Source: Promethearchaeota archaeon (GTDB lineage Archaea; Asgardarchaeota; Hermodarchaeia; Hermodarchaeales; Hermodarchaeaceae). From it: a DNA stretch of 32,000 bases. How positions within the stretch are numbered: the stretch's first letter is position 1; every line of letters begins with the position of its first letter. The notes below the pieces were generated by a model. That model did not search any database. It saw only the letters and a program-made list of their open reading frames with translations, and was not told the origin of the DNA. The stretch covers positions 1 to 32,000 of the forward strand of contig JBHLMI010000022.1 of assembly GCA_048938295.1 (NCBI GenBank), in the 5' to 3' direction. A program made the translations under genes and the position numbers. Shown here in pieces: positions 298 to 16,532 of the stretch.

Positions 298-663
298 ATG
301 CAACTTGTAGAATTTGGCCTCATTCTTGTTTTCATTGCACTAATCTTCACATCGTTTCTTGCTTCCATCATTCTTTCTAGACTTGTTAGTCCCAGAAATC
401 CTTCCAAGGAGAAAACAACAAGTTTTGAATGTGGCGAGGCCCCAAGTGGAGCTGGACGGGACCAGTTCGTCTTCAGATATTATCCCTACTTGTTGATGTT
501 CTTAGTGTTTGACGTTTCAGCGATGTTCCTATTTGCTTGGGCGGGGGCTTTCTCCTCGTTAGGCTTCGAGCTTCACATGATTGTGTTAGCCTTCCTTTTG
601 ATTGTTTTACCACCGATTGCATATGCGGTGAATGTGGCGGCGAGGGCCGAAAGGTGGGAATAA
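298..663 (+). CDS. nuoA: NADH-quinone oxidoreductase subunit A
   Basis: Three TM segments, K-x4-FECGEAP loop and [13 protein letters not shown] motif. ATG 298 chosen over TTG 292. Confidence 0.93.
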
Positions 664-665
664 CT

Positions 666-1181
666 ATGACAGGAATCGGTTCAGCCTTTGTTGGTTCGCT
701 CCGCAGTGCCTTGAACCGTGTGGTTAATGTCAAACCATTTCGATACCTGGTGAATTGGTCACGATTGTATTCTCTCTGGCCTGTCCATTTGACGACCGCA
801 TGTTGTAGCGTGGAATTCGGAGCAACGATGGGCTCAGGTTTCGATGCGGAACGACTTGGCGTTCTTCCTCTCGGATCTTTGCGGCAATGCGATCTCCTGA
901 TCATTGAGGGAACTGTAACGAAGAAAATGGCTGAGAGGATTGTTCGGATTTACCACCAGATGGCTTCTCCACGTTATGTAATTGCTATGGGGGCTTGTGC
1001 AATAACAGGCGGGGTCTTTCGAGGTTCTTACAGCATAGTTCCAGGTGTTGATAAGATACTCCCAGTCGATGTGTATGTTCCGGGGTGTCCACCTCGACCG
1101 GAAATGCTCATAGATGCAATTTTGGAGCTTCAACAAAAAATCAGGGAATCTAAGGTGAGTTTAGTTGATGATACAAAGTGA
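666..1181 (+). CDS. nuoB: NADH-quinone oxidoreductase subunit B (N2 cluster)
   Basis: Tandem-Cys [21 protein letters not shown] and [13 protein letters not shown] motifs. The true start is ATG 666; the ORF-track extension to 537 overlaps nuoA. Confidence 0.96.
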
Positions 1182-1479
1182 TGTGTTTGAATTGCAGGCA
1201 GAAATCTGTAAGGTGTTAGCGAATCCTAAACGTATCCGCATTATACACATACTAAAAGATACTGAAAAGACGGTAACAGAAATTTCCCAAGAGCTTGGGA
1301 TTACCCAATCAAATACTTCACAGCACTTAATGAAAATGAAAGCAAAAGGCGTCCTTAAATCACGAAGAGATGGACGCGAGATATACTACAGCATTGCAGT
1401 TCCTGAGCTTTCCCTTGCCTGTGAGTTCGTTGGACGCGCCTTAGAGAAAATCATAGTTAGACCCACGACTATGAGATAG
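1168..1479 (+). CDS. ArsR/SmtB-family winged-helix transcriptional repressor with two Cys (C14, C85)
   Basis: [13 protein letters not shown]...[20 protein letters not shown]...[11 protein letters not shown] pattern. SD GGTGAG at 1154-1159. Overlaps the nuoB stop. Confidence 0.92.
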
Positions 1480-1486
1480 GAGAGGG

Positions 1487-1960
1487 ATGAATTTGTCGAA
1501 GTATCTTAAGGCCATTGAATCCACTTTCACAGAAACAGCCGTTAAGATTAGCGAGAGGTACCCAAACCAACCTGTAATTCGCGCAGACCGTGAATCCCTA
1601 CAATCCATCGCGCAGCATCTAAAAGACACCATAGGATTCGATCATGCAATATCAGTTACAATCATTGATGACATTGAGAATAGCCAGTTTCTGATCGCTT
1701 ACCATCTTTCCTCAGTCCAAATTGTCAAACTTCATGGAATTGTCTTGACCCTAGAAGTAACTGTTCCGAGAGCGAGTCCCCGCTTACCATCCTTGATTTC
1801 AATCTGGCCCAGTGTTGAGTTTCACGAACGGGAGGGATGGGAGATGTTTGGTGTAGAGTTTGAAGGGCATCCCAGGCTTGAACGACTGCTTTTGCCAGAA
1901 TCCTGGGAGGGGGGCAATCCACTTCGAAAAGACTTCAGATTACCGGAGGACTCACAATGA
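1487..1960 (+). CDS. nuoC: NADH-quinone oxidoreductase subunit C
   Basis: EREGWEMFGVEFEGHPRLERLLLPESWEGGNPLRKDF signature. Confidence 0.95.
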   Translation: MNLSKYLKAIESTFTETAVKISERYPNQPVIRADRESLQSIAQHLKDTIGFDHAISVTIIDDIENSQFLIAYHLSSVQIVKLHGIVLTLEVTVPRASPRLPSLISIWPSVEFHEREGWEMFGVEFEGHPRLERLLLPESWEGGNPLRKDFRLPEDSQ

Positions 1961-3036
1961 GTAAAATCGAGTATAGCATGGGTCCCCAACATGCAGGTAC
2001 AGGTCATATGCGTTTGAAGATCCATCTATCAGGTGACCATGTAATCCAAGCGCTACCAGATCCGGGTTATGTGCATCGGGGAGCAGAAAAGCTCTGTGAG
2101 TCAAAGGAATTCCTCTGGAACATTCCTCTCCTTGAACGCGTATGTCTCCCGGATACTACTTCTGCTGCATGGGGATACGTCCTCGCGCTTGAACGGCTAT
2201 TGGGGGTAGAACCCACCGAGCCTGCTCAGTATATGCGCGCTTTATTCGCAGAGATGAATCGAATTGTAAGCCACCTATATTGGCTTGCGATCTTTGGTAT
2301 TTTTCTTGGCCACTCAACGATGTTCATGTGGCCCTTCGCTGATCGTGAACCTTTCATTGCGCTTGCCGAAGCAATTTCCGGGGCCCGATTGACCTACACT
2401 GATATATACCCAACGGGCGTGCGTCATAGACTCCCCGATAATTTTGTGCCACAAATGATGAAGGTAACCAAAAATTTCCGTAGCCGTCTTGTCGATTATG
2501 AGCGGATCTTCTTCACGACCGACATTTTCAAACAGCGAACCAAAGAGGTTGGGGTCCTTACAAAAGAGGAGGCTATTCGATTGGGAACCACTGGACCCGT
2601 TCTTAGAGGATCTGGTGTGAATTATGACCTTCGGAAAATTGATCATTATGGACCTTATTCTAAATTAGATTTTAGACCTGCTGTTATGGATGGCGGGGAT
2701 AGCTACTCCAGGGCAATGGTTCGGTTAGAGGAAATGCGGACAAGTACCTCATTAATTGAGCAAATATTGGAGAAGATGCCTTCAGGAGAGGTCGGGCAAA
2801 GAATGCCGAAGAGAGTTCCCGCCGGCACCGCTTATACACGAGTAGAATCTGCCCGGGGCGAAATAGGGTATCTAGTTGTAAGCAATGGTGAGAAATACCC
2901 AAGCCGTGTAAAAATTAGTACGCCGTGCTTCCGTCACCTTCCAGCTCTTGAATTCTTGCTCAAAGACATTGACCTGGCAGACGTGCCAACCATTTACTGG
3001 AGTCTTGATTACTGGCCACCAAATGCGGATAGGTAG
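1957..3036 (+). CDS. nuoD: NADH-quinone oxidoreductase subunit D (TACK-type, no NiFe site)
   Basis: GPQH, GYVHRGAEK, AEMNRIVSHL, GPVLRGSG, VESARGE and C-terminal SLDYWPPNADR. No CxxC pair at either end. Confidence 0.95.
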   Translation: MSKIEYSMGPQHAGTGHMRLKIHLSGDHVIQALPDPGYVHRGAEKLCESKEFLWNIPLLERVCLPDTTSAAWGYVLALERLLGVEPTEPAQYMRALFAEMNRIVSHLYWLAIFGIFLGHSTMFMWPFADREPFIALAEAISGARLTYTDIYPTGVRHRLPDNFVPQMMKVTKNFRSRLVDYERIFFTTDIFKQRTKEVGVLTKEEAIRLGTTGPVLRGSGVNYDLRKIDHYGPYSKLDFRPAVMDGGDSYSRAMVRLEEMRTSTSLIEQILEKMPSGEVGQRMPKRVPAGTAYTRVESARGEIGYLVVSNGEKYPSRVKISTPCFRHLPALEFLLKDIDLADVPTIYWSLDYWPPNADR

Positions 3037-3042
3037 TGAGAA

Positions 3043-4092
3043 ATGATGCAAATTTTAGAAACGATTAATGTGTTCATTCTGCAGATAATTACCTTTATTC
3101 AAGTGAATTTCACAACCATTTTTCTCATAACCGTCTTCCCGGGTTTTCTCACTATTGTTCTCGCCGCAGCAGCAATAATTTGGTTTGAACGAAAATTCTT
3201 GGCAAAAATGCAATTGCGCGTAGGTCCTCAATATGCAGGACGCATTGGTGGTATATTTCAACCTATTGCTGACTTTTTGAAACTCATCTTCAAGGAAGGA
3301 ATAATTCCCAAACGTGCAGATAGTTTCTTCTATCAATTGGCACCATTACTTATTGTTACCCTTGCAGCTGTAACAGCAACCGTTATCCCTGTAGGGCCCA
3401 ATGCAGTGATAGCTAATCTTCAATTTGGGCTGCTATTTATCTTCGCAGTTGGAGCGATTTTCCCAGTTCTAGCCTTCTTGACTGCGTGGGCGAGTAATAG
3501 CGTGTATCCGTTTCTAGGAGGTTTACGTGCCCTTCTCCAAATGATCGCCTATGAGGTGCCCTTGTGGCTATCGGCCGTAGGCGTAGTTATTCTAGCAGGC
3601 TCTTTCAACCTCACTGAGATTGTTTTAGCACAAAATTGGCTTTGGTTTGTAATTCTCATGCCTCTTGGTGCAATAATCTATTTCATAGCACTCTTAGTTG
3701 AAATTGAGCGCCTCCCCTTTGACTTGCCTGAAGCAGAACCAGAGATTGTGACAGGTTACATGAGCGAATATTCGGGGATGAACTTTGGGCTTATGATGAT
3801 GTCACAATACCTCAAGTTATACCTGGGGGCACTACTATTCACGACCCTCTTCTTAGGCGGATGGTTAATGCCTCCGTTCATCACGAATATGTTTCCATTT
3901 ATTCCACTATTTGTTTGGACCTTACTCAAAACGGCCTTTGTCATTGTCCTCTTCCTAATTCCACGAGGAATCTACCCACGCGTGAAACTCTCGATACTTC
4001 TTCGTTTGGGGTGGAACCGTTTGTTCCTCCTTGCGATTGTGAACCTCTTCCTGGTTGTTGGAATAATGATTTTCTTCGGAGGGATTCCTTAA
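3043..4092 (+). CDS. nuoH: NADH-quinone oxidoreductase subunit H
   Basis: ERKFLAKMQLRVGP, QPIADFLKLIFKE and ERLPFDLPEAEPEIVTGYMSEYSG motifs; about 8 TM segments. Confidence 0.96.
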   Translation: MMQILETINVFILQIITFIQVNFTTIFLITVFPGFLTIVLAAAAIIWFERKFLAKMQLRVGPQYAGRIGGIFQPIADFLKLIFKEGIIPKRADSFFYQLAPLLIVTLAAVTATVIPVGPNAVIANLQFGLLFIFAVGAIFPVLAFLTAWASNSVYPFLGGLRALLQMIAYEVPLWLSAVGVVILAGSFNLTEIVLAQNWLWFVILMPLGAIIYFIALLVEIERLPFDLPEAEPEIVTGYMSEYSGMNFGLMMMSQYLKLYLGALLFTTLFLGGWLMPPFITNMFPFIPLFVWTLLKTAFVIVLFLIPRGIYPRVKLSILLRLGWNRLFLLAIVNLFLVVGIMIFFGGIP

Positions 4093-4520
4093 TGCCAATT
4101 AGAGCATCATGGGCGGGATTCAAACAACTTTTCAAGCGTCGTGTCACAATCAAATATCCAAGTGAAGAATTAGAACTGCCAAAGAGTGAACGCGCGCGGC
4201 ATGTCTTCTATTTCAATCGGTGTATCAGTTGTTCTTTATGCGCTCGAAGTTGCCCAACAGCAGCCATTACTATGATTGAGTATCCTGGAGAGGAAAAACC
4301 GAAAAAACACCCACAGATTGATTATGGCCGTTGCATATTTTGTGGATATTGTGTTGATGTCTGCCCAAAGCATGCTTTAGTTCATTCTCGCTATTTTCAC
4401 CTCGCAACTCGTGAAACTTCACCATTGGTCTATAGTCCAGATCAACTCGCTGAGATTCCTGAAGGAGAAGAGCATCTTCTCCCCTCCGAAGAGGAATTGA
4501 AGAAGGAGGAAGAACCATGA
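4092..4520 (+). CDS. nuoI: NADH-quinone oxidoreductase subunit I (2x[4Fe-4S])
   Basis: VTIKYP, CISCSLCARSCP and CIFCGYCVDVCP. Start ATG overlaps the nuoH stop (TAATG). Confidence 0.95.
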   Translation: MPIRASWAGFKQLFKRRVTIKYPSEELELPKSERARHVFYFNRCISCSLCARSCPTAAITMIEYPGEEKPKKHPQIDYGRCIFCGYCVDVCPKHALVHSRYFHLATRETSPLVYSPDQLAEIPEGEEHLLPSEEELKKEEEP

Positions 4521-5035
4521 TTGATCCATTCTTCTTACCAGATCTTGGAGTGCTTATAATCGGAGTGCTAACGGTTGGTGCGGCGATTGCAGCAGTCGAA
4601 TCCAGAGAAATCGTGTATGGAGCCATTTCATTAGCAGGAATGATCCTAGGGATTGCAGGACTTTACATCTTATTGGATGCAACTTATGCCGCAATGTTCC
4701 AGATCTCTGTGTATATAGGTGCAGTGGTAGTTCTCATTTTCTTTACTATCATGGTCGTCCCATATGAAGTTTGGAGGCACCGACTCAAACGACCATGGCG
4801 TGAATGGCTGATTCCACTAATTATCAATGGTTTTCTTCTCGGTGTGCTTCTCTACATCTTTAACACACCTGCCATTGTCTCAGCCCTTCCTGATCCAGCC
4901 TTCAGTTGGAATATGGCAGACCTAACAGTAGTCCTTCTACAGGATTATGGTGTGGTTCTACTAGTTCTCGGACTCGTACTCGTCTCAGCACTCCTAGGAG
5001 CACTAACTCTAACCAAAAAGGAGAACGAATCCTAA
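4517..5035 (+). CDS. nuoJ: NADH-quinone oxidoreductase subunit J
   Basis: Five hydrophobic segments, QISVYIGAVVVLIFF motif and canonical position between nuoI and nuoK. Confidence 0.9.
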   Translation: MIDPFFLPDLGVLIIGVLTVGAAIAAVESREIVYGAISLAGMILGIAGLYILLDATYAAMFQISVYIGAVVVLIFFTIMVVPYEVWRHRLKRPWREWLIPLIINGFLLGVLLYIFNTPAIVSALPDPAFSWNMADLTVVLLQDYGVVLLVLGLVLVSALLGALTLTKKENES

Positions 5036-5355
5036 TGGCATCACTTTTCGTGTATCTGATAATCGTTGCGGCTCTCGTTGTTATTGGACTCTATGGACTG
5101 ACAAGTAAACGGAATGTCATGCGGTTATTCTTCAGTATTGAAATACTCATGAATGGGGCGAACTTGAGTATCGTTGTATTTGCTCGATACATCCTCTGGG
5201 GAACCGCAGCACTCGCAATTAATGGGCAAGCCATCGTACTTTTCGCAATTTCCCTTGAGGCAGCTGAAGCCGTCGTCGCGCTTGCCATTATTCTACTAGT
5301 TTCACGTGTGCGTGGTTCAGTGGACATCCATGAACTACGTGACTTGGAGGGTTAA
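5035..5355 (+). CDS. nuoK: NADH-quinone oxidoreductase subunit K
   Basis: KRNVMRLFFSIEILMNGANL and AAEAVVALA motifs, 106 aa. Start ATG overlaps the nuoJ stop. Confidence 0.93.
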   Translation: MASLFVYLIIVAALVVIGLYGLTSKRNVMRLFFSIEILMNGANLSIVVFARYILWGTAALAINGQAIVLFAISLEAAEAVVALAIILLVSRVRGSVDIHELRDLEG

Positions 5356-5360
5356 CAGCG

Positions 5361-6893
5361 ATGCAGACACTATTCGACTCGGTCATATTATTCCTGCAAA
5401 TGTATCCACTAACTCTTGGTGTATTCATTCCAATTCTCTTTACTGGGTTAATCCTCTTCTTCGCCCGTCACAGAGAACGACTAGCAATCTGCTTAAGCGT
5501 TCTGGCGATTTTCCTTTCTACTACCCTGGTTTTTTTCCGAGGATTTGATTTATTTCCATTCTCAGCTACCTCACCCGCTTATGTTGCGGAGACAGTTCTC
5601 TGGATTCCTACCCTTAATATCAGCCTCAGTTTCATGCTCGATGGTCTCAATTTCCCCATCGTTCTTATCACAGCAATTGTAACCACACTAATACTTCTCT
5701 TTACTAGACATTACTTCGAAGATGAGAAGAATAGTGGAACCTACATCGCAACCATCATCGTGATGTACAGTGGAATGCTAGGCGTATTTGTTGCTGCAGA
5801 TCTTTTCTTATTCTATCTTTTTTGGGAAATCACAATAATCCCTGCATATGCATTGGTCATCTATTGGCGAGAAGCGGGAGTATCTAAGGAAGACGCTCGA
5901 AGAACCGGTTTGAAGTTCTTCCTTTGGACCCATGTCGGGTCACTTGTCATGCTCATGGGCTTAATCCTCGTTTTCATCCTAACTGGTACAACGAATATGG
6001 TTGATATTCCTATAGCGCTAACAACAGTACCTATAACAAACATCCACATAATGCAATTTGCTGCAGCCGCGCTGATTTTTGGGTTCATCGTCAAACTTGG
6101 TATCTTCCCTGTCCATAGTTGGCTCCCCGACACATACGTCCAAGTGTCCTCACCTGCTACAGCCATGTTTGGTGGACTTCTTGCCAACATTGGGGCTTAT
6201 GGTCTAATTCGTATTGCCACAAGCTGGTTTCCATTCATTATAGCCGCTTGGTCACTTCCACTAGGATTGATAGCGGTAGTCTCAATCATCTATGGTGGTT
6301 ATATCGCGTTAGGCCAAGGAGAGTTCAAGCGACGATGGGCATATTCGAGTGTGAGCCAAGGTGGATACATTCTCCTTGGAGTCGCCTCAGTGACATCCCT
6401 TGGAGTAGCTGGTGCAACTTTTCACATAATCAATTCCGCAATCATTAAATCAGCACTATTTCTCACTGCTGGCGCTTATCTCATGGTTCTGAAAACCACT
6501 GATATTGAGTCCCTTCGAGGCATGGGCACAAAGATGCCGATAACTGGTATTGCCTTCCTACTTATGGCCTTGGCAATGGCAGGAATTCCTCCCTTAAGCG
6601 GATTCATTAGCGAAGTCCTCATCTTCTTGGGGATTTTCACAATTTCAAGTGCCATTATTATTGCTCTAATTGGTGCAGCCGCGATTCTGGTGACTTTTGT
6701 ATATGTACTTGGTCCCATCTACAAACTTTTCGTGGCGCCCCCCAAGACCGAACAACCCCAATTCAACGATCCGAGTTTATGGCAAACGATTCCATTCATC
6801 CTCTTGACAATCTTTGTGTTTATTCTTGGGATTTGGCCTAATCTGGTGTTGACACCGATTGGACATTGGCTACAGAGCATGGGAGGACTCTAA
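5361..6893 (+). CDS. Extra antiporter-like subunit 1 (NuoM/MrpD-like, 510 aa)
   Basis: FWEIT (TM5 Glu), VKLGIFPVHSWLPD (TM7 Lys), YSSVSQGGY and GIPPLSGFISE (TM12 Glu, M-type). The TM8 Lys position is Asn. Confidence 0.88.
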   Translation: MQTLFDSVILFLQMYPLTLGVFIPILFTGLILFFARHRERLAICLSVLAIFLSTTLVFFRGFDLFPFSATSPAYVAETVLWIPTLNISLSFMLDGLNFPIVLITAIVTTLILLFTRHYFEDEKNSGTYIATIIVMYSGMLGVFVAADLFLFYLFWEITIIPAYALVIYWREAGVSKEDARRTGLKFFLWTHVGSLVMLMGLILVFILTGTTNMVDIPIALTTVPITNIHIMQFAAAALIFGFIVKLGIFPVHSWLPDTYVQVSSPATAMFGGLLANIGAYGLIRIATSWFPFIIAAWSLPLGLIAVVSIIYGGYIALGQGEFKRRWAYSSVSQGGYILLGVASVTSLGVAGATFHIINSAIIKSALFLTAGAYLMVLKTTDIESLRGMGTKMPITGIAFLLMALAMAGIPPLSGFISEVLIFLGIFTISSAIIIALIGAAAILVTFVYVLGPIYKLFVAPPKTEQPQFNDPSLWQTIPFILLTIFVFILGIWPNLVLTPIGHWLQSMGGL

Positions 6894-6895
6894 CA

Positions 6896-8521
6896 ATGCT
6901 TCCCGGAATTGCTCTTCCATTCCCATTCCTGCTTCTATCACTTCTCATTCCAGTCATTGCAGGGATTCTTATCCTACTTTCCCTTTTAGTAGGAAAACCC
7001 CTTGGACGAAAAGGTTCCGGAATCATTGCGTCGATTGCCCTGGCAATTTCATTCACCACTCTACTGTATGTTCTTAGTATTGTACTCACTTTAGGACAAC
7101 CAGTCTACGAAGAGCATTATTGGTTCTCAATAGGAACAGTGGTCGTCGAATTTTCACTCCTCGCGGATTTCCTTAGCCTTCCCCTTTCATTGGCAATTGT
7201 TGGGTTGTGTACTGCATCAGCAGTATACAGCATCGAATACATCAAAGATAAACACGATTTTGCCATGTACTATGTTCTGTTACTCCTCTTTGCAGTCGGC
7301 ATGCTAGGAGTGACCATGGCAACGAACCTTCTTGTATTTTTCATCTTCTTTGAAGGTATGAACGTTCCCGCTTACTTCCTTGTCTCCAACTGGGGCACGA
7401 AGAAGGCCAAGATCATCGGCGTGAAATATATCCTCTATGTTTTCATCGGTGCTATTTGTATTCTTGCTGCAATTTTTTGGGTCTTCGGTATCACTAGTGC
7501 TTTGGGTACTCCGACACTAAATATCTATGAGGTCCCAGCACTACTTAGTCCACTTGCTTCAACGAGTCTACTCATCATGCAAAGCCTTGCCCTCCTCTTC
7601 TCCATCGGATTTTTTGTGAAAATGGCAATATTTCCACTTCATTCCTGGCTTCCTGACTTTCATGGAGAAGCCCCAGTGCCGATTCATGCATTATTGAGCG
7701 CTGTCATGATTAAGACAGGGGCTTACGGCTTCATCCGCATTACCTACTTCTTCTTCCCGCTTGTCGTATTACAAGCTTCAATTCTCCTAGCTGTTCTTGC
7801 CATTATCACGATGATTTGGGGAGCAGGTATGGCCCTGGTTCAAACGGATTACAAACGTGTACTCGCTTATAGCTCAGTCAATCAGATCGGTTATATCCTT
7901 CTGGGCTTCAGTACAATGAACATTTTCGGAATCACGGGAGCCCTCTTTCACATCTTAACTCATGGTCTGTCGAAAGGCGTCTTACTCTATACTGCAGGCT
8001 CCGTCGTTCATTCTGCAGGAACGAAACTCATCAACAAGATGGGAGGTTTAGCTTCGAAGATGCCTCTGACAGCAACTCTGAGCACCATAGGCGCATTAGC
8101 TATCGCAGGAACGCCACCACTTGCCACATTTGTCAGTGAGGCCTTCATCTTCATCGGGGTCTTCACCGTAGGTGTCAACTATCCGATTTTTACTGTCATA
8201 GGAGTAATTGGCATCATTTCCACAGCGCTTACTGCAGCGTATTATTTATGGACCGTGCGTCGGATGTTCCTCGGTCCACCATCCACGGAAATGGACAAAA
8301 CATACGAAGAATATCTCGCTGGCAGATACATTTCACCAGAGGGAATTCCACGTCGATTTGAGGAGGCCCATGAATCACCGCCGTTGATGACCATTCCGAT
8401 GCTGATTGTCGCGTTACTCATTATCCTCTTTGGTGTGTTTGCAGCCCTTATTCTCCCAATCATTTATCCCGCAGCTGAAGCGGCCATTGCAATTCTAACA
8501 GCTGCGATAGGAGGACTCTGA
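6896..8521 (+). CDS. Extra antiporter-like subunit 2 (NuoM/MrpD-like, 541 aa)
   Basis: FFEGM, VKMAIFPLHSWLPD, MIKTGAYG, YSSVNQIGY and GTPPLATFVSE. ATG 6896 follows SD GGAGG at 6882-6886. Confidence 0.88.
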   Translation: MLPGIALPFPFLLLSLLIPVIAGILILLSLLVGKPLGRKGSGIIASIALAISFTTLLYVLSIVLTLGQPVYEEHYWFSIGTVVVEFSLLADFLSLPLSLAIVGLCTASAVYSIEYIKDKHDFAMYYVLLLLFAVGMLGVTMATNLLVFFIFFEGMNVPAYFLVSNWGTKKAKIIGVKYILYVFIGAICILAAIFWVFGITSALGTPTLNIYEVPALLSPLASTSLLIMQSLALLFSIGFFVKMAIFPLHSWLPDFHGEAPVPIHALLSAVMIKTGAYGFIRITYFFFPLVVLQASILLAVLAIITMIWGAGMALVQTDYKRVLAYSSVNQIGYILLGFSTMNIFGITGALFHILTHGLSKGVLLYTAGSVVHSAGTKLINKMGGLASKMPLTATLSTIGALAIAGTPPLATFVSEAFIFIGVFTVGVNYPIFTVIGVIGIISTALTAAYYLWTVRRMFLGPPSTEMDKTYEEYLAGRYISPEGIPRRFEEAHESPPLMTIPMLIVALLIILFGVFAALILPIIYPAAEAAIAILTAAIGGL

Positions 8522-8522
8522 T

Positions 8523-10556
8523 ATGTTTCCGTTTGCACAATGGCTTACATGGATCCTCCCAATACTGGGTGCGATTCTTATTGCTTTAATTGGATGGCTT
8601 GACAAGCGAATATCAAAATACATTGCAGTCATAGTTGGTGCAATCGCGGGTATATTCGCTATTTCCATGATTCCAGATATTCTCGCCCTACCCTCGCTGG
8701 GATTACCTTATCTTGAGTCCAATATACCATGGGTTGTCCTTCCAGGAGTTGCAATTTATGTTGGCGTTTTGCTGGATCCACTCAGCGTCTTTATGGCGAA
8801 CATAGCCGTCTTAATCGGCTTCTTAATCATCGTCTATTCTATGAGCTATATGGGTGAAGATAAGAGCCAAACCCGATATTATGCTCTGATTTTACTTTTT
8901 ATCGGCGCTATGGCAGGGTTAGTTCTTGCCAACAACTTTCTCCAGCTATTCATCTTCTGGGAAGTTGTAGGCGTCTGCTCTTATGCCTTGATTGGGTTCT
9001 GGTATGAGAAACCCGAAGCCGCAAGGGCAGGAATGAAAGCTTTTGTTGTTACTCGAGTGGGGGACGTGTTTCTCTTAATTGGAATCGTCTTCCTCTTTAC
9101 ACAAGTAGGATCATTCAACTACATTGTTATTCAAGACGCTGTGGAACTTGGATTGATTAGCCTATCTGCTCTTACCATGACCTCTCTTTTCACCTTTGGA
9201 GGGGCTATGGGTAAGTCGGCTCAGGTCCCCTTCCATGTCTGGCTTCCAGATGCTATGCAGGGTCCAACCCCAGTTAGTGCCCTCATTCACGCAGCAACAA
9301 TGGTGAAAGCAGGAATCTACCTGGTTGGTCGAACTTTCTTCCTTTTCGGTTCTGTCACGCTATGGCTTAACACGGTCATAATAGTTGGCGCAATCACCAC
9401 TATTCTGGCAGCTACTATTGCCTTAGTTTCAACAGATCTAAAGGCTGTTCTCGCATATTCGACCATAAGTCAACTCGGCCTCATCATGGCGGCACTAGGT
9501 GTTGGTACAACTCTTGGTTGGTTTGCAGGGCAAGCACATGTAATGAGCCATGCCATTTTCAAAGCTCTGCTTTTCCTTTGTGCTGGCTCTGTTTTACATG
9601 CAGTAATGACTAATGACATCAACCAGATGGGTGGTCTTCGCCGGAAAATGCCTATCACTTTTGCAGCTAGTTTAATTGGCGTTCTAGCACTCGCGGGTAT
9701 TTTCCCATTTAATGGATTCTGGAGTAAAGACCTCATTTTTGCAGCAACATTACAATCAGGTGCACTCATATCTCTAATTCTTCTTTGGGTTGCTTCTGTA
9801 TTCACGGTTGCCTATAGTTTTCGCTGGATCATCTTGATTTTCATGGGTAACCCACGTAATGAAGAAATTGGTACTCATGTTCATGAAAGTCCTAAGTTAC
9901 TCACCGTTCCACTCATGATCTTAGCTGTTGGAGTCGTTTTTTCTGCGTTTCTAATTCCCACTGGATTACTTGCTACATACTTCGATGCTCATATCCATTT
10001 CGAAATTGAATTAATTCCACTCTTACTTTCTCTGTCCACCCTTGTAATCGGTGGTATACCCGCTATTCTAATCTATAAGTACCGAAAACCCGCACCGGAA
10101 TTCTTTAGTCAGAATCGCATCACTCGTGCACTTCAAACCATATTGAGCAACGGCTACTACTTCGATAAGATTTATGACTGGATATTTGTTCGCGGCACTC
10201 TGCGTATCTTCAACTTCATTCTTTCACGCGTTGAACTTGGGACTATCGACCGATTCCACTACATCTTTGCTCCTAAAGTTGAAGCGGGAAGCCGAATCCT
10301 AGATCAGGTGGTCGAGTCACGAGGATCAAAAGGAGCGAATTACAAGTTTGCACAATTTATGGTGAAAACCTCGATCGCCAGCAACTACGTTGATGCAAAC
10401 ATAGTTGATGGAGCAGTAAACGGTATTGCCAAAGCAGGAGAGAAGGCTTCTAGAAGCCTACGCCGGGTGCAAACAGGCATTACTATGAATTATGTCCTGG
10501 CTTTTGTGGTTGGTATAATTCTACTGATACTCTTTCTTGTGACGTTGGTAGGGTGA
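8523..10556 (+). CDS. nuoL: NADH-quinone oxidoreductase subunit L with an extended lateral helix
   Basis: FWEVVG, GKSAQVPFHVWLPDAMQGPTPVSALIHAATMV, HAIFKALLF and GFWSKD. C-terminal YYFD...QTG helix followed by the final TM. Confidence 0.96.
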   Translation: MFPFAQWLTWILPILGAILIALIGWLDKRISKYIAVIVGAIAGIFAISMIPDILALPSLGLPYLESNIPWVVLPGVAIYVGVLLDPLSVFMANIAVLIGFLIIVYSMSYMGEDKSQTRYYALILLFIGAMAGLVLANNFLQLFIFWEVVGVCSYALIGFWYEKPEAARAGMKAFVVTRVGDVFLLIGIVFLFTQVGSFNYIVIQDAVELGLISLSALTMTSLFTFGGAMGKSAQVPFHVWLPDAMQGPTPVSALIHAATMVKAGIYLVGRTFFLFGSVTLWLNTVIIVGAITTILAATIALVSTDLKAVLAYSTISQLGLIMAALGVGTTLGWFAGQAHVMSHAIFKALLFLCAGSVLHAVMTNDINQMGGLRRKMPITFAASLIGVLALAGIFPFNGFWSKDLIFAATLQSGALISLILLWVASVFTVAYSFRWIILIFMGNPRNEEIGTHVHESPKLLTVPLMILAVGVVFSAFLIPTGLLATYFDAHIHFEIELIPLLLSLSTLVIGGIPAILIYKYRKPAPEFFSQNRITRALQTILSNGYYFDKIYDWIFVRGTLRIFNFILSRVELGTIDRFHYIFAPKVEAGSRILDQVVESRGSKGANYKFAQFMVKTSIASNYVDANIVDGAVNGIAKAGEKASRSLRRVQTGITMNYVLAFVVGIILLILFLVTLVG

Positions 10557-10562
10557 GTCAAG

Positions 10563-12023
10563 ATGGTTCTATGGGAAAATGCATTACTCATATTGATCGG
10601 TGGAGCACTCCTCGGCTCCCTCATCACGTACTTGCTTGGACGGTTCGGTTCAATGATTGTCAAAGGCTTTGCTGTAGCCTGGACAACCTTATTGTTCCTC
10701 TTCACAGGATTATTATGGCTAGGATTCAACCCAAGCACACCAGGATTCTCCTACCTAATTGATATTCCTTGGATACCAGCCCTTGGAATTACTTTCAAAC
10801 TTGGTGTTGACGGAATCAGTTTTCCACTTTTACTAGCAACAACACTTCTTACCCTAGCCGCGGCGATTGGGTCCATGACGCTAATCAAAGAACACGTAGC
10901 CATATACTACGGTACCCTCTTGCTATTAGAGGCGGCCCTCATGGGAGTTTTTATTTCACTAAACCTTCTAGTCTTCTTCATCTTTTGGGAACTCGTGCTA
11001 ATCCCCATGTTCATCTTAATCGGTGTATGGGGCGGTGCAAACCGCCGTTATGCCGCAATGAAATTCCTCATCTTTACCCATGTCGGCAGCATCCTGATGC
11101 TTTTAGGATTCATTATGCTCTTCCTCTTTGCAGGCACCTGGGATTTGACTTACTTCCTCACATCACCCATCCCCTTTGCCGTTGCACTGCCGATAATGAT
11201 CATTACCTTCATTGGATTTGCCGTGAAGTTACCCATCGTTCCCCTTCACACCTGGCTCCCAGATGCACACGTAGAAGCCCCTGCACCTATCAGCATTATT
11301 CTTGCTGGTGTCCTACTAAAAATGGGAGGATACGGCTTCATTCGAATTTCAATCGGCGTATTTCCACAGATTGCAGCTTTACTTGCTCCAGCCATCATGG
11401 GCTTTGGTATCATCACCATCTTCTATGGAGCCCTCGTCGCATTGAACCAACGGGATATGAAACGCATGATTGCTTTGACCAGTATCAACCATATGGGACT
11501 AGTCTTACTCGGAGCATTTACCTTAACAACAATTGGAGTGGCTGGAGCCGTTTTAATGATGTTCAATCATGCATGTGCAATTGGATTGATGTTTTTACTC
11601 ACTGGTGTTATCCAGAAACGTGCTGGAACCCGAAACATCGATGAACTTTCTGGCATGGGCAAATTGATGCCATGGACAGCTCTGTTCTTTGTCTTAGGCT
11701 CACTCGCGTCAATGGGAATACCACTCTTCGCACCGTTTGTCAGCGAATTCATGATCTTTACTGGAACACTTTCAATTCTGCCCATTCTAGTTTTTGTGAT
11801 CCTCGCCCCTGGAATTGTCGTTGCCTACTTCCTATGGACGATTGATCGAATAATTATTTCAGATCCCCATCCCGGAACCCGCATGCGACGAGCCCGCCTT
11901 AGCGAACTTATCGCGCTATTATTACTTCTACTTCCCATCATTCTCCTTGGACTCTTACCAGCTATGATGGTTGACCGAATAGTACCTGCTGTACAGCTCT
12001 TATTAAGTGGTGGAGGTTCGTAA
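10563..12023 (+). CDS. nuoM: NADH-quinone oxidoreductase subunit M
   Basis: FWELVLIPMF, VKLPIVPLHTWLPDAHVEAP, LLKMGGYG and FVSEF; canonical position between nuoL and nuoN. Confidence 0.95.
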   Translation: MVLWENALLILIGGALLGSLITYLLGRFGSMIVKGFAVAWTTLLFLFTGLLWLGFNPSTPGFSYLIDIPWIPALGITFKLGVDGISFPLLLATTLLTLAAAIGSMTLIKEHVAIYYGTLLLLEAALMGVFISLNLLVFFIFWELVLIPMFILIGVWGGANRRYAAMKFLIFTHVGSILMLLGFIMLFLFAGTWDLTYFLTSPIPFAVALPIMIITFIGFAVKLPIVPLHTWLPDAHVEAPAPISIILAGVLLKMGGYGFIRISIGVFPQIAALLAPAIMGFGIITIFYGALVALNQRDMKRMIALTSINHMGLVLLGAFTLTTIGVAGAVLMMFNHACAIGLMFLLTGVIQKRAGTRNIDELSGMGKLMPWTALFFVLGSLASMGIPLFAPFVSEFMIFTGTLSILPILVFVILAPGIVVAYFLWTIDRIIISDPHPGTRMRRARLSELIALLLLLLPIILLGLLPAMMVDRIVPAVQLLLSGGGS

Positions 12024-13493
12024 ATGCAACTTGCTGAATTGGTCACCTTGTTCAATACTCTACTCGCAAGCCCCTTCTTCCCCTTCATCGTATTTGCCAT
12101 TCTCGGATTGCTTACGCCTGTTATTAATCGGATCTTTCGAGGGAAAGTTACGGCTTACTGGCCTTTAGTCAGCCTAGGTATATTTGCCATACTGGTATTG
12201 CCAAGATGGGCAACTGTGCTTACTTCCCCCATTATGACCCCAAGCCTCCTCTTTGATAGTATTAGCCTTTTCTTTGTTACCCTGTTTATCGTTGTTGGTT
12301 TTGCTGTAACCATTGCTTCAATAGATTACTTCAGAGAAAATCACAATCAAGAAATATACTACACTTTGCTGCAATTGGCACTTCTTGGCATGATGCTAAT
12401 TTCTATGGCTGTTGACTTAATTGTCATGTTTGCCGGATGGATTCTGGTCGCCGTTACCAGCTACACCCTTGTTGTGATTCGTAAAGAGGATGCTAAGGGT
12501 GTGGAGGCAGGTGTTAAATACTTCATAATGGGTGCAGCATCCTCCTCCATTCTCTTTCTCGGCATCTCAATAACATACGGACTCACTGGAAGCACCCAAC
12601 TAGCAGAAATTTCTACAGCCTGGGCTGCACTCGATCCGAACCTTATTCCTCTCGCATTACTAGGCGTAATGCTGATTCTTGTAGGATTTGGATTCAAAAT
12701 GGGCATTACCCCGTTTCACATGTGGTTACCTGACACTTACGAAGGGGCCCCACAGCCAGTTTCCGCATTTCTCGGCGGAGGCTCAAACAAAGCTGCATTC
12801 GCTGCTGCTATCCGTGTCTTCATTTTGGGATTTTTAGTTTTCCGCTTCCAATGGACCGCTGCCTTTGCATTTCTAGCCCTAATAACTATGACGTGGGGAA
12901 ACATTGCAGCACTCTCCCAGAAAACCCTTCCAAGATTGCTTGCATACTCAGCTATTGCTCAAGCAGGATACACAATCATCGGTCTAGCTGCTCCAACGGT
13001 CTTAGGATTATCTGGTTTTATGTTTCACGCATTGAATGACGGGGTAGCCAAGACAGGAGCGTTCATTGCAGCAGCAGCCGTTGCATTTACTCTTTCGAAA
13101 ACCAAGCTTTCGGATTACAAAGGCCTGGGCAAGCGAATGCCAATCACTGCGTTCAGCCTAGCGATTCTATTATTAGCCCTAGCCGGTATTCCTCCGCTAA
13201 GTGGTTTCTTCAGCAAACTGATCCTGTTTACAGCTGCCGTTGAAGTTGGATTAATCTGGTTAGCTCTTGCGGGAGTCCTAAACAGTGCATTTTCCCTTGC
13301 ATATTATGGATGGATAATCAAACGAATGTATATGGATGAACCTGATGAATCAGATGCTGATCAAACAGTTAGAGAATCGCGTAAATTCCAATTCGCACTT
13401 GTTGCACTCGCTGCTGCCACAATCCTCATTGGACTATTTAGCGGTATAATTATCGGATACATCGAAACCATGGTAATTGGATTCTACCCCTAA
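12024..13493 (+). CDS. nuoN: NADH-quinone oxidoreductase subunit N
   Basis: EAGVKYFIMGA, FKMGITPFHMWLPDTYEGAP, RLLAYSAIAQAGY and AGIPPLSGFFSK (TM12 Lys). Confidence 0.94.
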   Translation: MQLAELVTLFNTLLASPFFPFIVFAILGLLTPVINRIFRGKVTAYWPLVSLGIFAILVLPRWATVLTSPIMTPSLLFDSISLFFVTLFIVVGFAVTIASIDYFRENHNQEIYYTLLQLALLGMMLISMAVDLIVMFAGWILVAVTSYTLVVIRKEDAKGVEAGVKYFIMGAASSSILFLGISITYGLTGSTQLAEISTAWAALDPNLIPLALLGVMLILVGFGFKMGITPFHMWLPDTYEGAPQPVSAFLGGGSNKAAFAAAIRVFILGFLVFRFQWTAAFAFLALITMTWGNIAALSQKTLPRLLAYSAIAQAGYTIIGLAAPTVLGLSGFMFHALNDGVAKTGAFIAAAAVAFTLSKTKLSDYKGLGKRMPITAFSLAILLLALAGIPPLSGFFSKLILFTAAVEVGLIWLALAGVLNSAFSLAYYGWIIKRMYMDEPDESDADQTVRESRKFQFALVALAAATILIGLFSGIIIGYIETMVIGFYP

Positions 13494-13512: not shown

Positions 13513-14874
13513 TCACTCATTTGGTGGAGTTATTCGTAAGAACCGTCCAACGAGCGTGACAATATCAAGCACGGGAATGTCCAAGCCAAGCTTTTGCATG
13601 CCATGTGTGAGATTAAGCACACAGAAAGGGCAGGCTGTGACAACCATGGTTGCCCCCACATCCACGATTTCACCAACACGCTCCCACGCCATTCGCTCTT
13701 CTAAAGGCATCGCTGCCTTCTCTTCTTCGGAAAGTTCACGATACTCCTTTGAGAGCTTTTTTGCAGCAGCCTTTACTTGAGCAGGTGAACTCCTTGGTTC
13801 AGTATCATAGATTCGCTTTGCAGCAATTTCCAAGGCAAGCTCGGGAATACCAGCTTTGACTCCGCCTCCCGCTCCACAGCACCGAGAGTATTCTCGGGTG
13901 CGACTCATTTCAACCAGTGTAATGCCGGGCAAAAGATTGAGGATTTGCCGTGGAGCATCATAGACACCAACATGTCGACCGAGATGGCAAGGATCATGGT
14001 AAGCAACACGTTCTTTGATGCCTGGAAGAGGTTTAATGTCAATGTTTTCAAGAGCCTTGGCGAGTAATTGAGTAATGTGCTGCACTTTGAATGGGAGTTT
14101 TCCGTAGTATCGTGGCCAATCGAACACGGACGTTCGGAAACATCCCGAGCAGGAATAGACAACGAGTTTGACGCCTTTTTCTTTGATGGTGTCCACATTG
14201 TGTTGGACTAAATCCTTAACAACCTCAATTTGTCCAGTTCGGATGAGAGGGGAACCACAACACCGTTCATCATTCCCTGGTAGCACAAAATCAATATTAA
14301 GTTTATTGAGAATACGAGCCGTGGTGATAGCAAGATGCTGCATTTTATACGAAGAGGTGCATCCAACGAAGTAGGCAACATCAGCGACCTCAGCAACTTT
14401 TACATCGGCGGGAAGCCAATCCGTACGGGAGCGATGATCTTCGCCATACGGGTTAAACTTGGTTTTCACATTGTTCGGCCAGTCCCGCTGACGTTCAAGT
14501 GGACCAAAACCCTGTTTCACCATATCAGCGCGAACCGTTTCCCATAAATCGCAACTTTTTATCCGTGATTCACACACCGTTTGACATTGTCCACACACAG
14601 TACAAAGATACAGATCCTCAACGAACTTGTCGATTTTATTCCTATCAATGACACTTCCCCCTCGAGCACGCCCCATAATTCCATACACATGTTTGACCAT
14701 TTCTCGCAGATTTCGAATTTTTCCACGCGCTGTTACACCTTCACGTTGTAACTGATCAAAGACTGGACAGAACTTAACACATTCACCACAATCAACACAA
14801 GCATCCAGCTCCATCGCCTGCTTCCGCGTTAACTGTGGGAAACTAACCTTTTCCTTATTTGTGGTCACTCTCAT
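13513..14874 (-). CDS. hdrD: Heterodisulfide reductase catalytic subunit D-like (2x[4Fe-4S] plus two CCG domains), Methanosarcina-type
   Basis: MELDACVDCGECVKFCP, CTVCGQCQTVCE, YFVGCT, ERCCGSPLIRTGQ, YHDPCHLGRH, RCCGAGGGVKAG and ACPFC closely parallel Methanosarcina HdrD as recalled from memory. ATG 14874 has a GGGAG SD. Confidence 0.85.
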   Translation of the reverse strand: MRVTTNKEKVSFPQLTRKQAMELDACVDCGECVKFCPVFDQLQREGVTARGKIRNLREMVKHVYGIMGRARGGSVIDRNKIDKFVEDLYLCTVCGQCQTVCESRIKSCDLWETVRADMVKQGFGPLERQRDWPNNVKTKFNPYGEDHRSRTDWLPADVKVAEVADVAYFVGCTSSYKMQHLAITTARILNKLNIDFVLPGNDERCCGSPLIRTGQIEVVKDLVQHNVDTIKEKGVKLVVYSCSGCFRTSVFDWPRYYGKLPFKVQHITQLLAKALENIDIKPLPGIKERVAYHDPCHLGRHVGVYDAPRQILNLLPGITLVEMSRTREYSRCCGAGGGVKAGIPELALEIAAKRIYDTEPRSSPAQVKAAAKKLSKEYRELSEEEKAAMPLEERMAWERVGEIVDVGATMVVTACPFCVLNLTHGMQKLGLDIPVLDIVTLVGRFLRITPPNE

Positions 14875-15583
14875 CAACTCCCGTAATTTCCCGGATATAT
14901 TCCTCCTCCCACTTTTCTTCAATAGCACTGCGGACCATAATTATTGGTGCTGCAATGATATGCTGGAATTTTGAATAAAATAAAACTGCAATCATCGTCC
15001 AAATAATGAAACCGTGAATGATTCCATACCATCCTCGGATACCGATGACATACTCATATGAAAAAGCCATATGCCCTGATATTGCAATGGAAAGTAGTAG
15101 AATCAGTGGCAAGTAGTTATGGAGGTTTGTAACCGCCCGCCCCTCTTTCGAACCAATGCGACTCCCAAAAGCCATTATTACACCGATTACAAGCAATATA
15201 GTCAATACATCATGAGCAATTATTCGCATTTCCAGTGTAGCCCAAGGAAAGAGAATGGTTTCATTGAGCAAAATGAATCGAGGGATCCCATGGAAAAGAA
15301 GGAGACCCACAAATCCTACTATAATGAATCCATGTTTCACCCATCGATATACAGACTGACGTTTAATCGTTCCACCAAACGTCCAGTCAGAAATAACCGT
15401 GTTAATAAAAGCAGTGAGTTTGGTCCGAAAAGGTACATCAATAAGCCAACCAGCAGTATGCTCAGCAGGACCTTTATGCGGTTTCGTCCACCGGACAAGA
15501 ATACGAATGAAACCAATCGTAAAAAGGGCTAGCGCAATCCAACGATAGAAAAATAGAATTTGATATGCTAGCTCTTGTTGCAT
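14855..15583 (-). CDS. hdrE: Membrane di-heme cytochrome b (NarI/HdrE family), partner of HdrD
   Basis: About 5 TM segments, His pairs RWVKH...LLFH and IIH...YSKFQHIIAAP, and IKRQSVYRW motif. Directly upstream of, and overlapping, hdrD. Confidence 0.8.
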   Translation of the reverse strand: MQQELAYQILFFYRWIALALFTIGFIRILVRWTKPHKGPAEHTAGWLIDVPFRTKLTAFINTVISDWTFGGTIKRQSVYRWVKHGFIIVGFVGLLLFHGIPRFILLNETILFPWATLEMRIIAHDVLTILLVIGVIMAFGSRIGSKEGRAVTNLHNYLPLILLLSIAISGHMAFSYEYVIGIRGWYGIIHGFIIWTMIAVLFYSKFQHIIAAPIIMVRSAIEEKWEEEYIREITGVDESDHK

Positions 15584-15680
15584 AGTATCTCGCCTTTACC
15601 TCTATTCAATTCCTTCAGATTTTCATCAAAAGACTTCCCAATTTACTAATCACACTTCTTTTCAAGCAGTTTTGGAGCAT

Positions 15681-15736
15681 GAAAAAGAAGGGGGAAATTG
15701 GAGGGCTTGACAATAAAATCAGTAGCCCTCCAATTT
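15681..15736 (-). terminator. Hairpin + C-run + U-tract terminator-like element downstream of the DoxX gene
   Basis: Perfect 13-bp inverted repeat AAATTGGAGGGCT (15695-15707)/AGCCCTCCAATTT (15724-15736), followed on the minus strand by a C-run and TTCTTTTTC. Confidence 0.7.
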
Positions 15737-15754
15737 TATTCTGGTTTGGTAAAT

Positions 15755-16453
15755 CTATGTCCATAATCCTAAGAACCTTAGGAAGGCGTTTTTAGATTCC
15801 TGAAGCTTTGGACCGAGCCACCTGTCCACGCCTATGTATCGACCGGCTTGATACATTCCTACAACGAGGAATGCTAAAGCACCAAGGAAGTTGATACCAA
15901 AGGTGGAGACGCTTAGCCATCCCAGTAGGAAGAGGAATGACCATTGCATGAGAACTCCGCCCAATGAACCTAATCGAGTGAAGAACCCGAAGGTTATGGA
16001 CAGCCCGACAAGAAGTTCACCTATAGCGATAAGCATCAGAAAAGCCGTTGGGTTCAATAGAATTACCGTATTAAAGAAACCTTGAATATAGGGACTGGGG
16101 GCAGTTGAGGCAGCGAGATTGAGAAGGCCATAATTTGTTGGGTAGGCAGGATCGAGTAATTTTTCTAATCCGCCATGAAGGAACTCATAACCTAACGCTA
16201 ATCGCAATGGGAACAGAAATGCCAGCATTGGGAATTTATCTGGCCAGCCCCATCGCAAAAAGAAGAAGATAGGTACAAGAAGAATCGCTAGAATCACTAA
16301 GGGTGACAGAATTAAGCTGAGAGAGGGAACAAGGAGGCTGGGATCTGGCACTATCCATTGAGGTCCCAAAGCCAGAGCGATGATTACACCGAGAATTATT
16401 GTGACAACTACTGTGAAAATAAGAGCAATCCATTGATTTCGATTTATTTCCAT
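15755..16453 (-). CDS. DoxX/DoxD-family membrane protein (thiosulfate:quinone oxidoreductase small subunit-like) with two extra N-terminal TM segments
   Basis: LRLALGYEFLHGGLEKL, GELLVGLSITFGFFTRL and AGRYIGVD motifs. ATG 16453 has an AAGGAG SD. Confidence 0.8.
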   Translation of the reverse strand: MEINRNQWIALIFTVVVTIILGVIIALALGPQWIVPDPSLLVPSLSLILSPLVILAILLVPIFFFLRWGWPDKFPMLAFLFPLRLALGYEFLHGGLEKLLDPAYPTNYGLLNLAASTAPSPYIQGFFNTVILLNPTAFLMLIAIGELLVGLSITFGFFTRLGSLGGVLMQWSFLFLLGWLSVSTFGINFLGALAFLVVGMYQAGRYIGVDRWLGPKLQESKNAFLRFLGLWT

Positions 16454-16500
16454 TTTTATTTCTCCTTTAGAGGAAAGTGGTAAACGACAAATCAGATTTC

Positions 16501-16532
16501 CTTTTATATATTGCACTATTGTATTTGTGAAA
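16501..16532 (-). promoter_or_regulatory. TATA box (TATATAAA) of the DoxX gene with an adjacent imperfect inverted repeat TTGCAC-N10-GTGAAA
   Basis: TATA at 16510-16503, about 50 nt upstream of the ATG. The inverted repeat at 16511-16532 matches at 5/6 positions. Confidence 0.45.

Follow-up and report, generated by a model that had tools for sequence, protein, structure and literature searches.

The window analysed here is a stretch of 32,000 nt from contig JBHLMI010000022.1 of the Promethearchaeota archaeon assembly GCA_048938295.1, a metagenome-assembled genome of 66 contigs that is 91.6% complete (G000 where it is compared with other genomes). On the plus strand it carries an operon in the order nuoA, nuoB, arsR, nuoC, nuoD, nuoH, nuoI, nuoJ, nuoK, X1, X2, nuoL, nuoM and nuoN, in which X1 and X2 are two extra genes for antiporter-like subunits of a complex I-like enzyme. 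Five consecutive open reading frames on this strand matched PF00361 with E values of 5e-59 to 5e-79, intergenic gaps were -1 to 6 nt, and a Shine-Dalgarno-like GGAGG preceded each start codon. An earlier note, made from the sequence alone, had described five consecutive, tightly coupled and full-length antiporter-family genes together with nuoA-D and nuoH-K, and the PF00361 and NCBIfam matches and the short gaps bear out that description. The feature is real and conserved, and we consider it likely that the product of the operon is a single complex I-like enzyme in which five antiporter-like modules are combined. The genes of the operon are as follows, with the matches that identify them.

298..663, plus strand: nuoA, ATG at 298 (PF00507, E 3e-22)
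666..1181, plus strand: nuoB with a tandem CC motif, ATG at 666 immediately following the nuoA stop (PF01058; NF005012 208.6, cut-off 116)
1165..1479, plus strand: ArsR-family helix-turn-helix (HTH) gene between nuoB and nuoC (PF01022, E 7e-13)
1487..1960, plus strand: nuoC (PF00329, E 3e-35)
1957..3036, plus strand: nuoD, without [NiFe] cysteine motifs (NF004739 397.9, cut-off 360)
3043..4092, plus strand: nuoH (PF00146, E 6e-96; NF004741 317, cut-off 305)
4092..4520, plus strand: nuoI, two [4Fe-4S] clusters, ATG overlapping the nuoH stop (Fer4 families)
4517..5035, plus strand: nuoJ (PF00499)
5035..5355, plus strand: nuoK, ATG overlapping the nuoJ stop (PF00420)
5361..6893, plus strand: X1, first extra antiporter-like subunit, 510 amino acids (aa) (PF00361, PF00662; TIGR01972 325, cut-off 263.8)
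6896..8521, plus strand: X2, second extra antiporter-like subunit, 541 aa from ATG or 551 from an upstream TTG (PF00361, PF00662; TIGR01972 295, cut-off 263.8)
8523..10556, plus strand: nuoL, 677 aa (NF005141 574.5, cut-off 556; Protein Data Bank matches NdhF and NuoL)
10563..12023, plus strand: nuoM, 486 aa, canonical clade (TIGR01972 459)
12024..13493, plus strand: nuoN, 489 aa, canonical clade (TIGR01770 329.8, just below the cut-off of 332.6; NuoN is the best score)

Pfam or NCBIfam matches were obtained for all eleven of NuoA, B, C, D, H, I, J, K, L, M and N, and NuoB, D, H and L passed curated cut-offs. NuoEFG genes were not found in the window, nor were MrpA, B, C, E, F or G-type genes found within 5361-13493 or adjoining it; the earlier note's statement that no MrpB/E/F/G-type small subunits occur among the five genes is upheld by the gene and family matches. 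Judged by its gene content, the operon is that of a complex I-like, NuoEFG-less oxidoreductase of the 11-subunit type.

The Shine-Dalgarno-like motifs coincide with C-terminal Gly codons of the preceding gene. In X1 and X2 the C-terminal Gly-Gly-Leu codons at the same time supply the Shine-Dalgarno-like site for the gene that follows, and the sequence GGAGGACTCT(A/G)A is common to the X1/X2 (6881-6896) and X2/L (8510-8525) junctions. The ArsR-family gene overlaps the nuoB stop and is absent from the gene lists of the Candidatus (Ca.) Borrarchaeum cluster and of the clusters in an oxidase-bearing archaeal lineage, both described below.

Conservation of the X1-X2 gene pair

The K-X1-X2-L-M-N order was complete in two further genomes of the same genus (G003 and G004). 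Another, G014, carried X1-X2-L-M and a partial N, G008 carried K-X1-X2 up to the contig end, and in G007 the genes were split over two contigs; the X1-X2 order recurs in all 5 of these species-level genomes. Among 400 Asgard genomes, X1 orthologues were present in this genus (6 of 15 genomes) and in the Borrarchaeum family (3 of 5). A Ca. Borrarchaeum contig reads nuoABCDHIJK-X1-X2 followed by three more antiporter-like genes, and two species of the oxidase-bearing lineage (GCA_040961615.1 and JGI 3300085302) carry nuoA, C, H, J, K-X1-X2-L-M-N with heme-copper oxidase genes approximately 3 kb from the operon. The gene lists of the latter operons (L032 7202-18226 and L115 7164-18189) lack nuoB, nuoD and nuoI, so that these must either lie elsewhere or have been missed in gene calling.

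A pattern scan covered 185,579 species genomes and gave 80 loci; X1-X2 were present at just two of them, namely the Thor-type locus of this genus and that of Borrarchaeum. Nearly all the remaining loci had two or three antiporter genes, and a Nitrososphaeria locus was found with four, arranged as X-L-M-N. A locus search with the X1 sequence alone gave no relative, whereas a query built from an alignment did.

The earlier note had named absence of this synteny from related genomes as a sign of duplication during assembly. The K-X1-X2-L order is present in the genus, in Borrarchaeum and in the oxidase-bearing lineage, and assembly duplication is not supported. In other samples of the same study, Logan contigs span the K/X1, X1/X2 and X2/L junctions, with no rearranged joints; run X5, from a different study, yielded fragments only, with no contig spanning a junction by at least 31 nt. 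We rule out an assembly artefact because the junctions are bridged by contigs of other samples and the same order stands in relatives. Pairwise identity among X1, X2 and M is only 32-35%, which rules out a recent tandem duplication, and X1 and X2 are not sisters in the trees described below, which rules them out as a recent tandem pair. With the order shared by 5 genomes of the genus and two other lineages, the chance that the locus reflects an artefact or a recent local duplication is practically nil.

Relationships and charged residues of the antiporter-like subunits

Trees were made from 71-74 antiporter-like proteins, with branch support from the Shimodaira-Hasegawa-like approximate likelihood ratio test (SH-aLRT). 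L, M and N of the window clustered with E. coli NuoL, NuoM and NuoN, respectively, and NuoM fell inside the canonical NuoM clade with 100% support. X1 was monophyletic across all three lineages (99%), as was X2 (100%). Both clades were placed inside a 99% superclade with NuoM, which unites the subunits that carry Glu in transmembrane helix 12 (TM12), and outside the 100% canonical NuoM clade. Within the superclade X2 joined, at 96%, the middle subunits of archaeal A-D1-D2 arms, which come from Bathyarchaeia Hfo-type clusters and from a module on contig C17 of this same genome; X2 and the C17 copy are 41% identical. S. aureus MnhD2 and rhizobial MrpD-like proteins were not members of this superclade. 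The earlier note had called for a phylogeny of the M-type proteins and had set against its own reading the case that the extra genes group with a separate Mrp complex. The extra genes do not belong to a Mrp operon of their own.

The '3M' label that the operon had been given is apt only in part. The M-type TM12 Glu is present in both X1 and X2, and both score above the TIGR01972 cut-off, but in the trees neither falls in the canonical NuoM clade, and X2 is placed with the middle subunits of archaeal Hfo/Mrp-like arms. In Borrarchaeum the three genes after X1-X2 proved to be of A-D1-D2 type and not canonical L-M-N, and X1-X2 therefore appear to act as a cassette that has been joined to two different arms.

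The TM12 motifs are GFISE in X1, TFVSE in X2, PFVSE in M, GFWSK in L and GFFSK in N, so that the sequence confirms the Glu reported for three of the subunits and the Lys reported for L and N. X2 has all five canonical M-type residues, with E153 in TM5, K242 in TM7, K273 in TM8, H356 in TM11 and E415 in TM12, and X2, M and L retain the full charged set. X1 retains Glu156 (TM5), Lys245 (TM7) and Glu418 (TM12), and has Asn276 in place of the TM8 Lys and Ser359 in place of the TM11 His. These two changes are common to G004 and G008; the Lys and His are kept in G014, in Borrarchaeum and in the oxidase-bearing lineage. Similarly, the TM5 Glu of NuoN is replaced by Ile140 in G000, G003 and G004 and kept in G007. 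G014 and G007 retain the charged residues of X1 and NuoN wherever these were checked, which would make their species better candidates for five intact modules.

The proton stoichiometry of complex I, 4 H+ per 2 electrons, is usually taken as set by three antiporter-like subunits and the E-channel. The earlier note had put the yield of the present enzyme at up to about 6 H+ per 2 electrons. Since two of the five modules are altered in this species, where X1 is without the TM8 Lys and the TM11 His and NuoN without the TM5 Glu, that figure can stand only as an upper bound, and we expect a yield above the canonical 4 and probably below 6 ions per 2 electrons. Sister species that differ in the charged residues of X1 and NuoN offer one natural comparison.

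The NuoL lateral helix and the arrangement of the membrane arm

NuoL of complex I bears a lateral (clamp) helix, HL, for which lengths are given here as the span between the YFDxxY motif and the beginning of TM16. Two features of the window NuoL are relevant here.

10155..10466, plus strand: lateral helix HL of NuoL, residues 545-648, 104 aa (YYFDKIY motif to TM16 start)
10224..10391, plus strand (approximate position): HL insertion of 53-55 aa, residues ~568-623, the size of two units of ~26-27 aa (phmmer alignments; self-similarity)

The span is 52 aa in E. coli NuoL, 104 aa in the window NuoL and in those of G014 and G007, and 103 aa in the oxidase-bearing lineage. HL is 52-55 aa longer than the canonical helix, or two times the 26 aa published for each extra subunit. 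When NuoL was aligned with solved chains of NdhF and NuoL, phmmer placed an insertion of 53-55 aa in the helix, where residues 567 to 623 of the query face residues 602 to 604 of 6hum_F and residues 558 to 624 face 635 to 648 of 8qby_L. Self-similarity within HL peaked at offsets 26-27 with z values of 2.2 and 3.2, the strongest of 60 offsets tested. It has been proposed that HL gains one 26-aa insertion for each added subunit (PMC9040806).

Taken together, we propose that the membrane arm would consist of canonical NuoN, NuoM and NuoL plus X1 and X2, with all five co-assembling and X1-X2 forming a conserved two-gene cassette placed between nuoK and nuoL. Charge changes along the arm would drive ion translocation in the modules. 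Because the NuoL helix has gained two units of about 26 aa, our leading model has the modules in the order N-M-X-X-L, in which the clamp helix would span four neighbors. The helix supports co-assembly and this order without proving either.

Several observations weigh against this model. The AlphaFold2 monomer of NuoL shows helices at 548-597 and 605-631 with a predicted local distance difference test (pLDDT) score below 50, and for that reason we took no length in Å from it. The lengthening of about 26 aa per extra subunit that the window displays (104 against 52 aa) is weakened as a rule by related clusters that do not fit it: in Borrarchaeum, five antiporter genes go with an L-type helix of only 51 aa, the X-L-M-N clusters of G011 and G012 have four genes and a 106-aa helix, and three genes accompany helices of 76-82 aa in an Fpo-like cluster on contig C41 of this genome and in many Bacteroidota and Ignavibacteriota L-M-N clusters. 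Helix length alone is no predictor of subunit number, and similar mismatches were reported by Yu et al. (PMC9040806). The gene order K-X1-X2-L would, by colinearity with canonical operons, put X1-X2 distal to L. The central charged axis is incomplete in X1 and NuoN of this species. Finally, a MenA-like gene above its cut-off lies on contig C16, but MenD, MqnA and MqnC were not found in the 91.6%-complete genome, where the quinone pathway is only partly detectable.

In the strongest alternative, five modules form one complex with X1-X2 distal to NuoL (N-M-L-X2-X1), HL does not clamp X1-X2 and its extension has some other cause. K-X1-X2-L-M-N is colinear with a distal-to-proximal layout, as are canonical K-L-M-N operons, and in the Manganitrophaceae model MrpD2 bears an HL that is extended only as far as the second NuoM (PMC9040806). 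The short helix of Borrarchaeum and the long helices found beside just three antiporter genes also fit this arrangement. Set against it are the two 26-aa units of the window helix, which match two extra subunits, and the Nitrososphaeria X-L-M-N cluster, where one added subunit goes with one added unit (80 aa). That helix is lengthened despite the X-before-L order, and gene order is therefore no reliable guide to position. We regard a distal placement of X1-X2 as unlikely.

A further alternative is that X1 and X2 replace M or L in variant complexes, so that no single complex holds five modules. Cyanobacterial NdhD and NdhF paralogues provide a precedent for alternative subunits, X1 and X2 are M-type by their residues and NCBIfam scores, and X1 has degenerated in this species. 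The five genes are nevertheless part of one translationally coupled operon, X1 and X2 are always paired and always in the same position, and swapping would leave the 52-aa helix extension unexplained; X2, moreover, lacks a lateral helix and so cannot replace L. We consider such replacement very improbable.

X1-X2 could also be a separate Mrp-like cation/proton antiporter that is merely co-transcribed with the nuo genes. Both proteins carry PF00662, and the nearest relatives of X2 are the middle subunits of archaeal A-D1-D2 modules, including the C17 copy. This idea is opposed by the lack of adjoining Mrp-type genes, by the position of X1-X2 inside the operon and not at its end, by the placement of MnhD2 outside the M superclade and by the A-D1-D2 module with its own small subunits that the genome already has on C17. 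In our judgement there is scarcely any chance that X1-X2 form an independent antiporter.

The earlier note knew of no complex I with five antiporter subunits, but one had already been published from a bacterial family, Complex_I_3 of Ca. Manganitrophaceae, with five pumping subunits (Yu, Chadwick, Lingappa & Leadbetter 2022, mBio; PMC9040806). In that complex two MrpD-like subunits replace NuoL and are joined by two NuoM of the Nitrospira type and a single NuoN; HL has a single 26-aa insertion, and the authors proposed 6 ions per 2 electrons and possible reverse electron transport to ferredoxin (PMC9040806). The present operon resembles that of Complex_I_3 in that it encodes all five antiporter-like subunits together and that its lateral helix is extended. 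It differs in its archaeal host, a bona fide NuoL (574.5 against the cut-off of 556), a double insertion of about 52 aa, and a single canonical NuoM accompanied by two extra subunits in clades of their own outside canonical NuoM.

The 2M complex I of Nitrospira and some Thaumarchaeota (Chadwick et al. 2018), as it is presented in two later papers (PMC9040806, PMC7300363), has one duplicate of NuoM and four modules. Like it, the window has extra M-type subunits in the nuo operon and an HL lengthened in 26-aa steps, and X1 and X2 belong to the NuoM family by their TIGR01972 scores and TM12 Glu. Unlike the 2M form so described, the window has two extra subunits and five modules; the extras fall outside the NuoM clade, are not canonical NuoM duplicates and are encoded before nuoL rather than beside nuoM. 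The rhizobial 'green' complex I (the S. meliloti pSymA nuo cluster) likewise has extra genes between nuoK and nuoM, there of the MrpD family, but two MrpD-like proteins replace NuoL, four modules result, NuoEFG are present, and the MrpD-like proteins lie outside the M superclade with X1 and X2. NuoEFG-less 11-subunit relatives, such as cyanobacterial NDH-1, Fpo-type enzymes and the Sifarchaeia complex I (PMC9723677), share the absence of an NADH module and ferredoxin as presumed donor, a reading already published for relatives of Borrarchaeum. The best solved match to the window NuoL was cyanobacterial NdhF1; these relatives differ in having three antiporter-like subunits.

In Hfo and Mbh-Mrp-like arms (A-D1-D2, as in Bathyarchaeia Hfo), it is the middle 'D1' subunit to which X2 is most closely related, and X1 at a greater distance. 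Those arms have three modules and either go with [NiFe]-type NuoD homologues or stand alone, whereas NuoD of the window lacks Ni cysteines and its L, M and N are of canonical complex I type. The hallmarks of a Mrp/Mnh antiporter, an MrpA C-terminal domain with MrpB, C, E, F and G beside MrpD, are missing here. In the literature searched, the coverage of which was incomplete, we found no description of an archaeal, NuoL-based five-module complex I, and the two extra genes are not mentioned in the Sifarchaeia paper (PMC9723677), in the Borrarchaeum genome paper or in a preprint on Asgard respiration.

More tentatively, X1-X2 might be a portable two-pump cassette set between nuoK and the L-type gene in two types of arm, namely a canonical L-M-N arm with a clamp helix lengthened by two 26-aa units (the Thor-type operon and the oxidase-bearing lineage) or an Hfo-like A-D1-D2 arm with a helix that is not lengthened (Borrarchaeum), both of them true five-module arms moving up to 6 ions per 2 electrons. 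We hold this to be possible and somewhat doubtful. If it is true, Asgard archaea would have a ferredoxin-to-membrane-carrier pump, or the reverse, geared higher than any characterised complex I, and the clamp helix would not be obligatory for added modules.

Natural forms with four or five modules would be the best material for testing how far the long-range coupling wave reaches and whether gearing is adapted to life at low energy. An archaeal form with five modules, based on a true NuoL whose clamp helix is doubly extended, would be an independent second design beside that of the bacterium Manganitrophus. The cassette with and without a helix extension offers another natural comparison, besides that of the charged residues. 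The host is a sediment Asgard archaeon, and Asgard bioenergetics bear on models of eukaryogenesis. Practical impact is limited for now, pending an enrichment or a heterologous system.

Side observations on the helix concern other clusters. Many of the Ignavibacteriota and Bacteroidota L-M-N loci (L064-L114) have helices of 76-82 aa, about one unit above E. coli. A JGI 'NuoL' of 765 aa (P0136) carries tandem VDxxVVDGAVNG units about 26 aa apart in its lateral helix, a clear case of growth by unit duplication. Four-antiporter X-L-M-N clusters occur at L022 (G011, 5955-12715) and L023 (G012, 5448-12175), with matches on contig C2 of G014 and contigs C7 and C34 of G007, and G014 and G007 appear to hold both the four-gene and the five-gene type. 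NuoL of the G011/G012 type is 766 aa long, with a 106-aa helix and additional transmembrane segments before the helix and at the C-terminus, and X of this cluster has Gly at the TM8 Lys position.

Electron transfer and neighboring genes

The N-terminal motif of NuoD is GPQHAGTGH and the C-terminal one DYWPPNADR; the protein has no CxxC pairs and passes NF004739. A group 4 [NiFe] hydrogenase was ruled out as a reading of the operon because NuoD lacks the Ni cysteines, and the Q-module (NuoB, C, D and I) is of complex I type and not of hydrogenase type. It would take electrons from a low-potential donor, for example ferredoxin, and hand them to a membrane carrier. The absence of NuoEFG, a NuoD without Ni cysteines and the CC motif of NuoB make ferredoxin the likely donor, as has been proposed for the related Sifarchaeia complex I (PMC9723677).

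As a side observation, NuoD reads ERVCLPD at the presumed position of the quinone-site Tyr motif, of which the canonical form is R(L/M)DY. This may indicate an unusual acceptor site.

Three minus-strand genes, at 13513-16516, are convergent with nuoN. They encode an HdrD/TfrB-like protein, a His-rich multi-transmembrane protein of 242 aa with no family match, and a DoxD/DoxX-like protein.

13513..14928, minus strand: HdrD/TfrB-like CCG-domain iron-sulfur protein (PF02754, E 3e-36, and Fer4_8; best NCBIfam match TfrB, below cut-off)

The HdrD/TfrB-like protein is a possible downstream redox partner of the complex, and the three genes together could form a membrane thiol/disulfide or quinol-linked module.

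Two other membrane-arm clusters were found in this genome. Contig C41 (L011, 7607-17563, minus strand) holds the second, Fpo-like cluster, in which a NuoCD fusion that weakly matches NiFeSe_Hases comes first, followed by H, I, J, K, L, M, N and an FrhB/FpoF-like gene; its NuoL is 651 aa long with a helix span of 78. The module on contig C17 (L012, 3015-13378, minus strand) consists of a membrane arm only, with a NuoJ-like protein, an unknown protein, a NuoK-like protein, an A subunit of 777 aa, D1 and D2. It adjoins a gene for V-type ATPase subunit I, and the five-antiporter operon of Borrarchaeum likewise precedes V-ATPase genes (L031).

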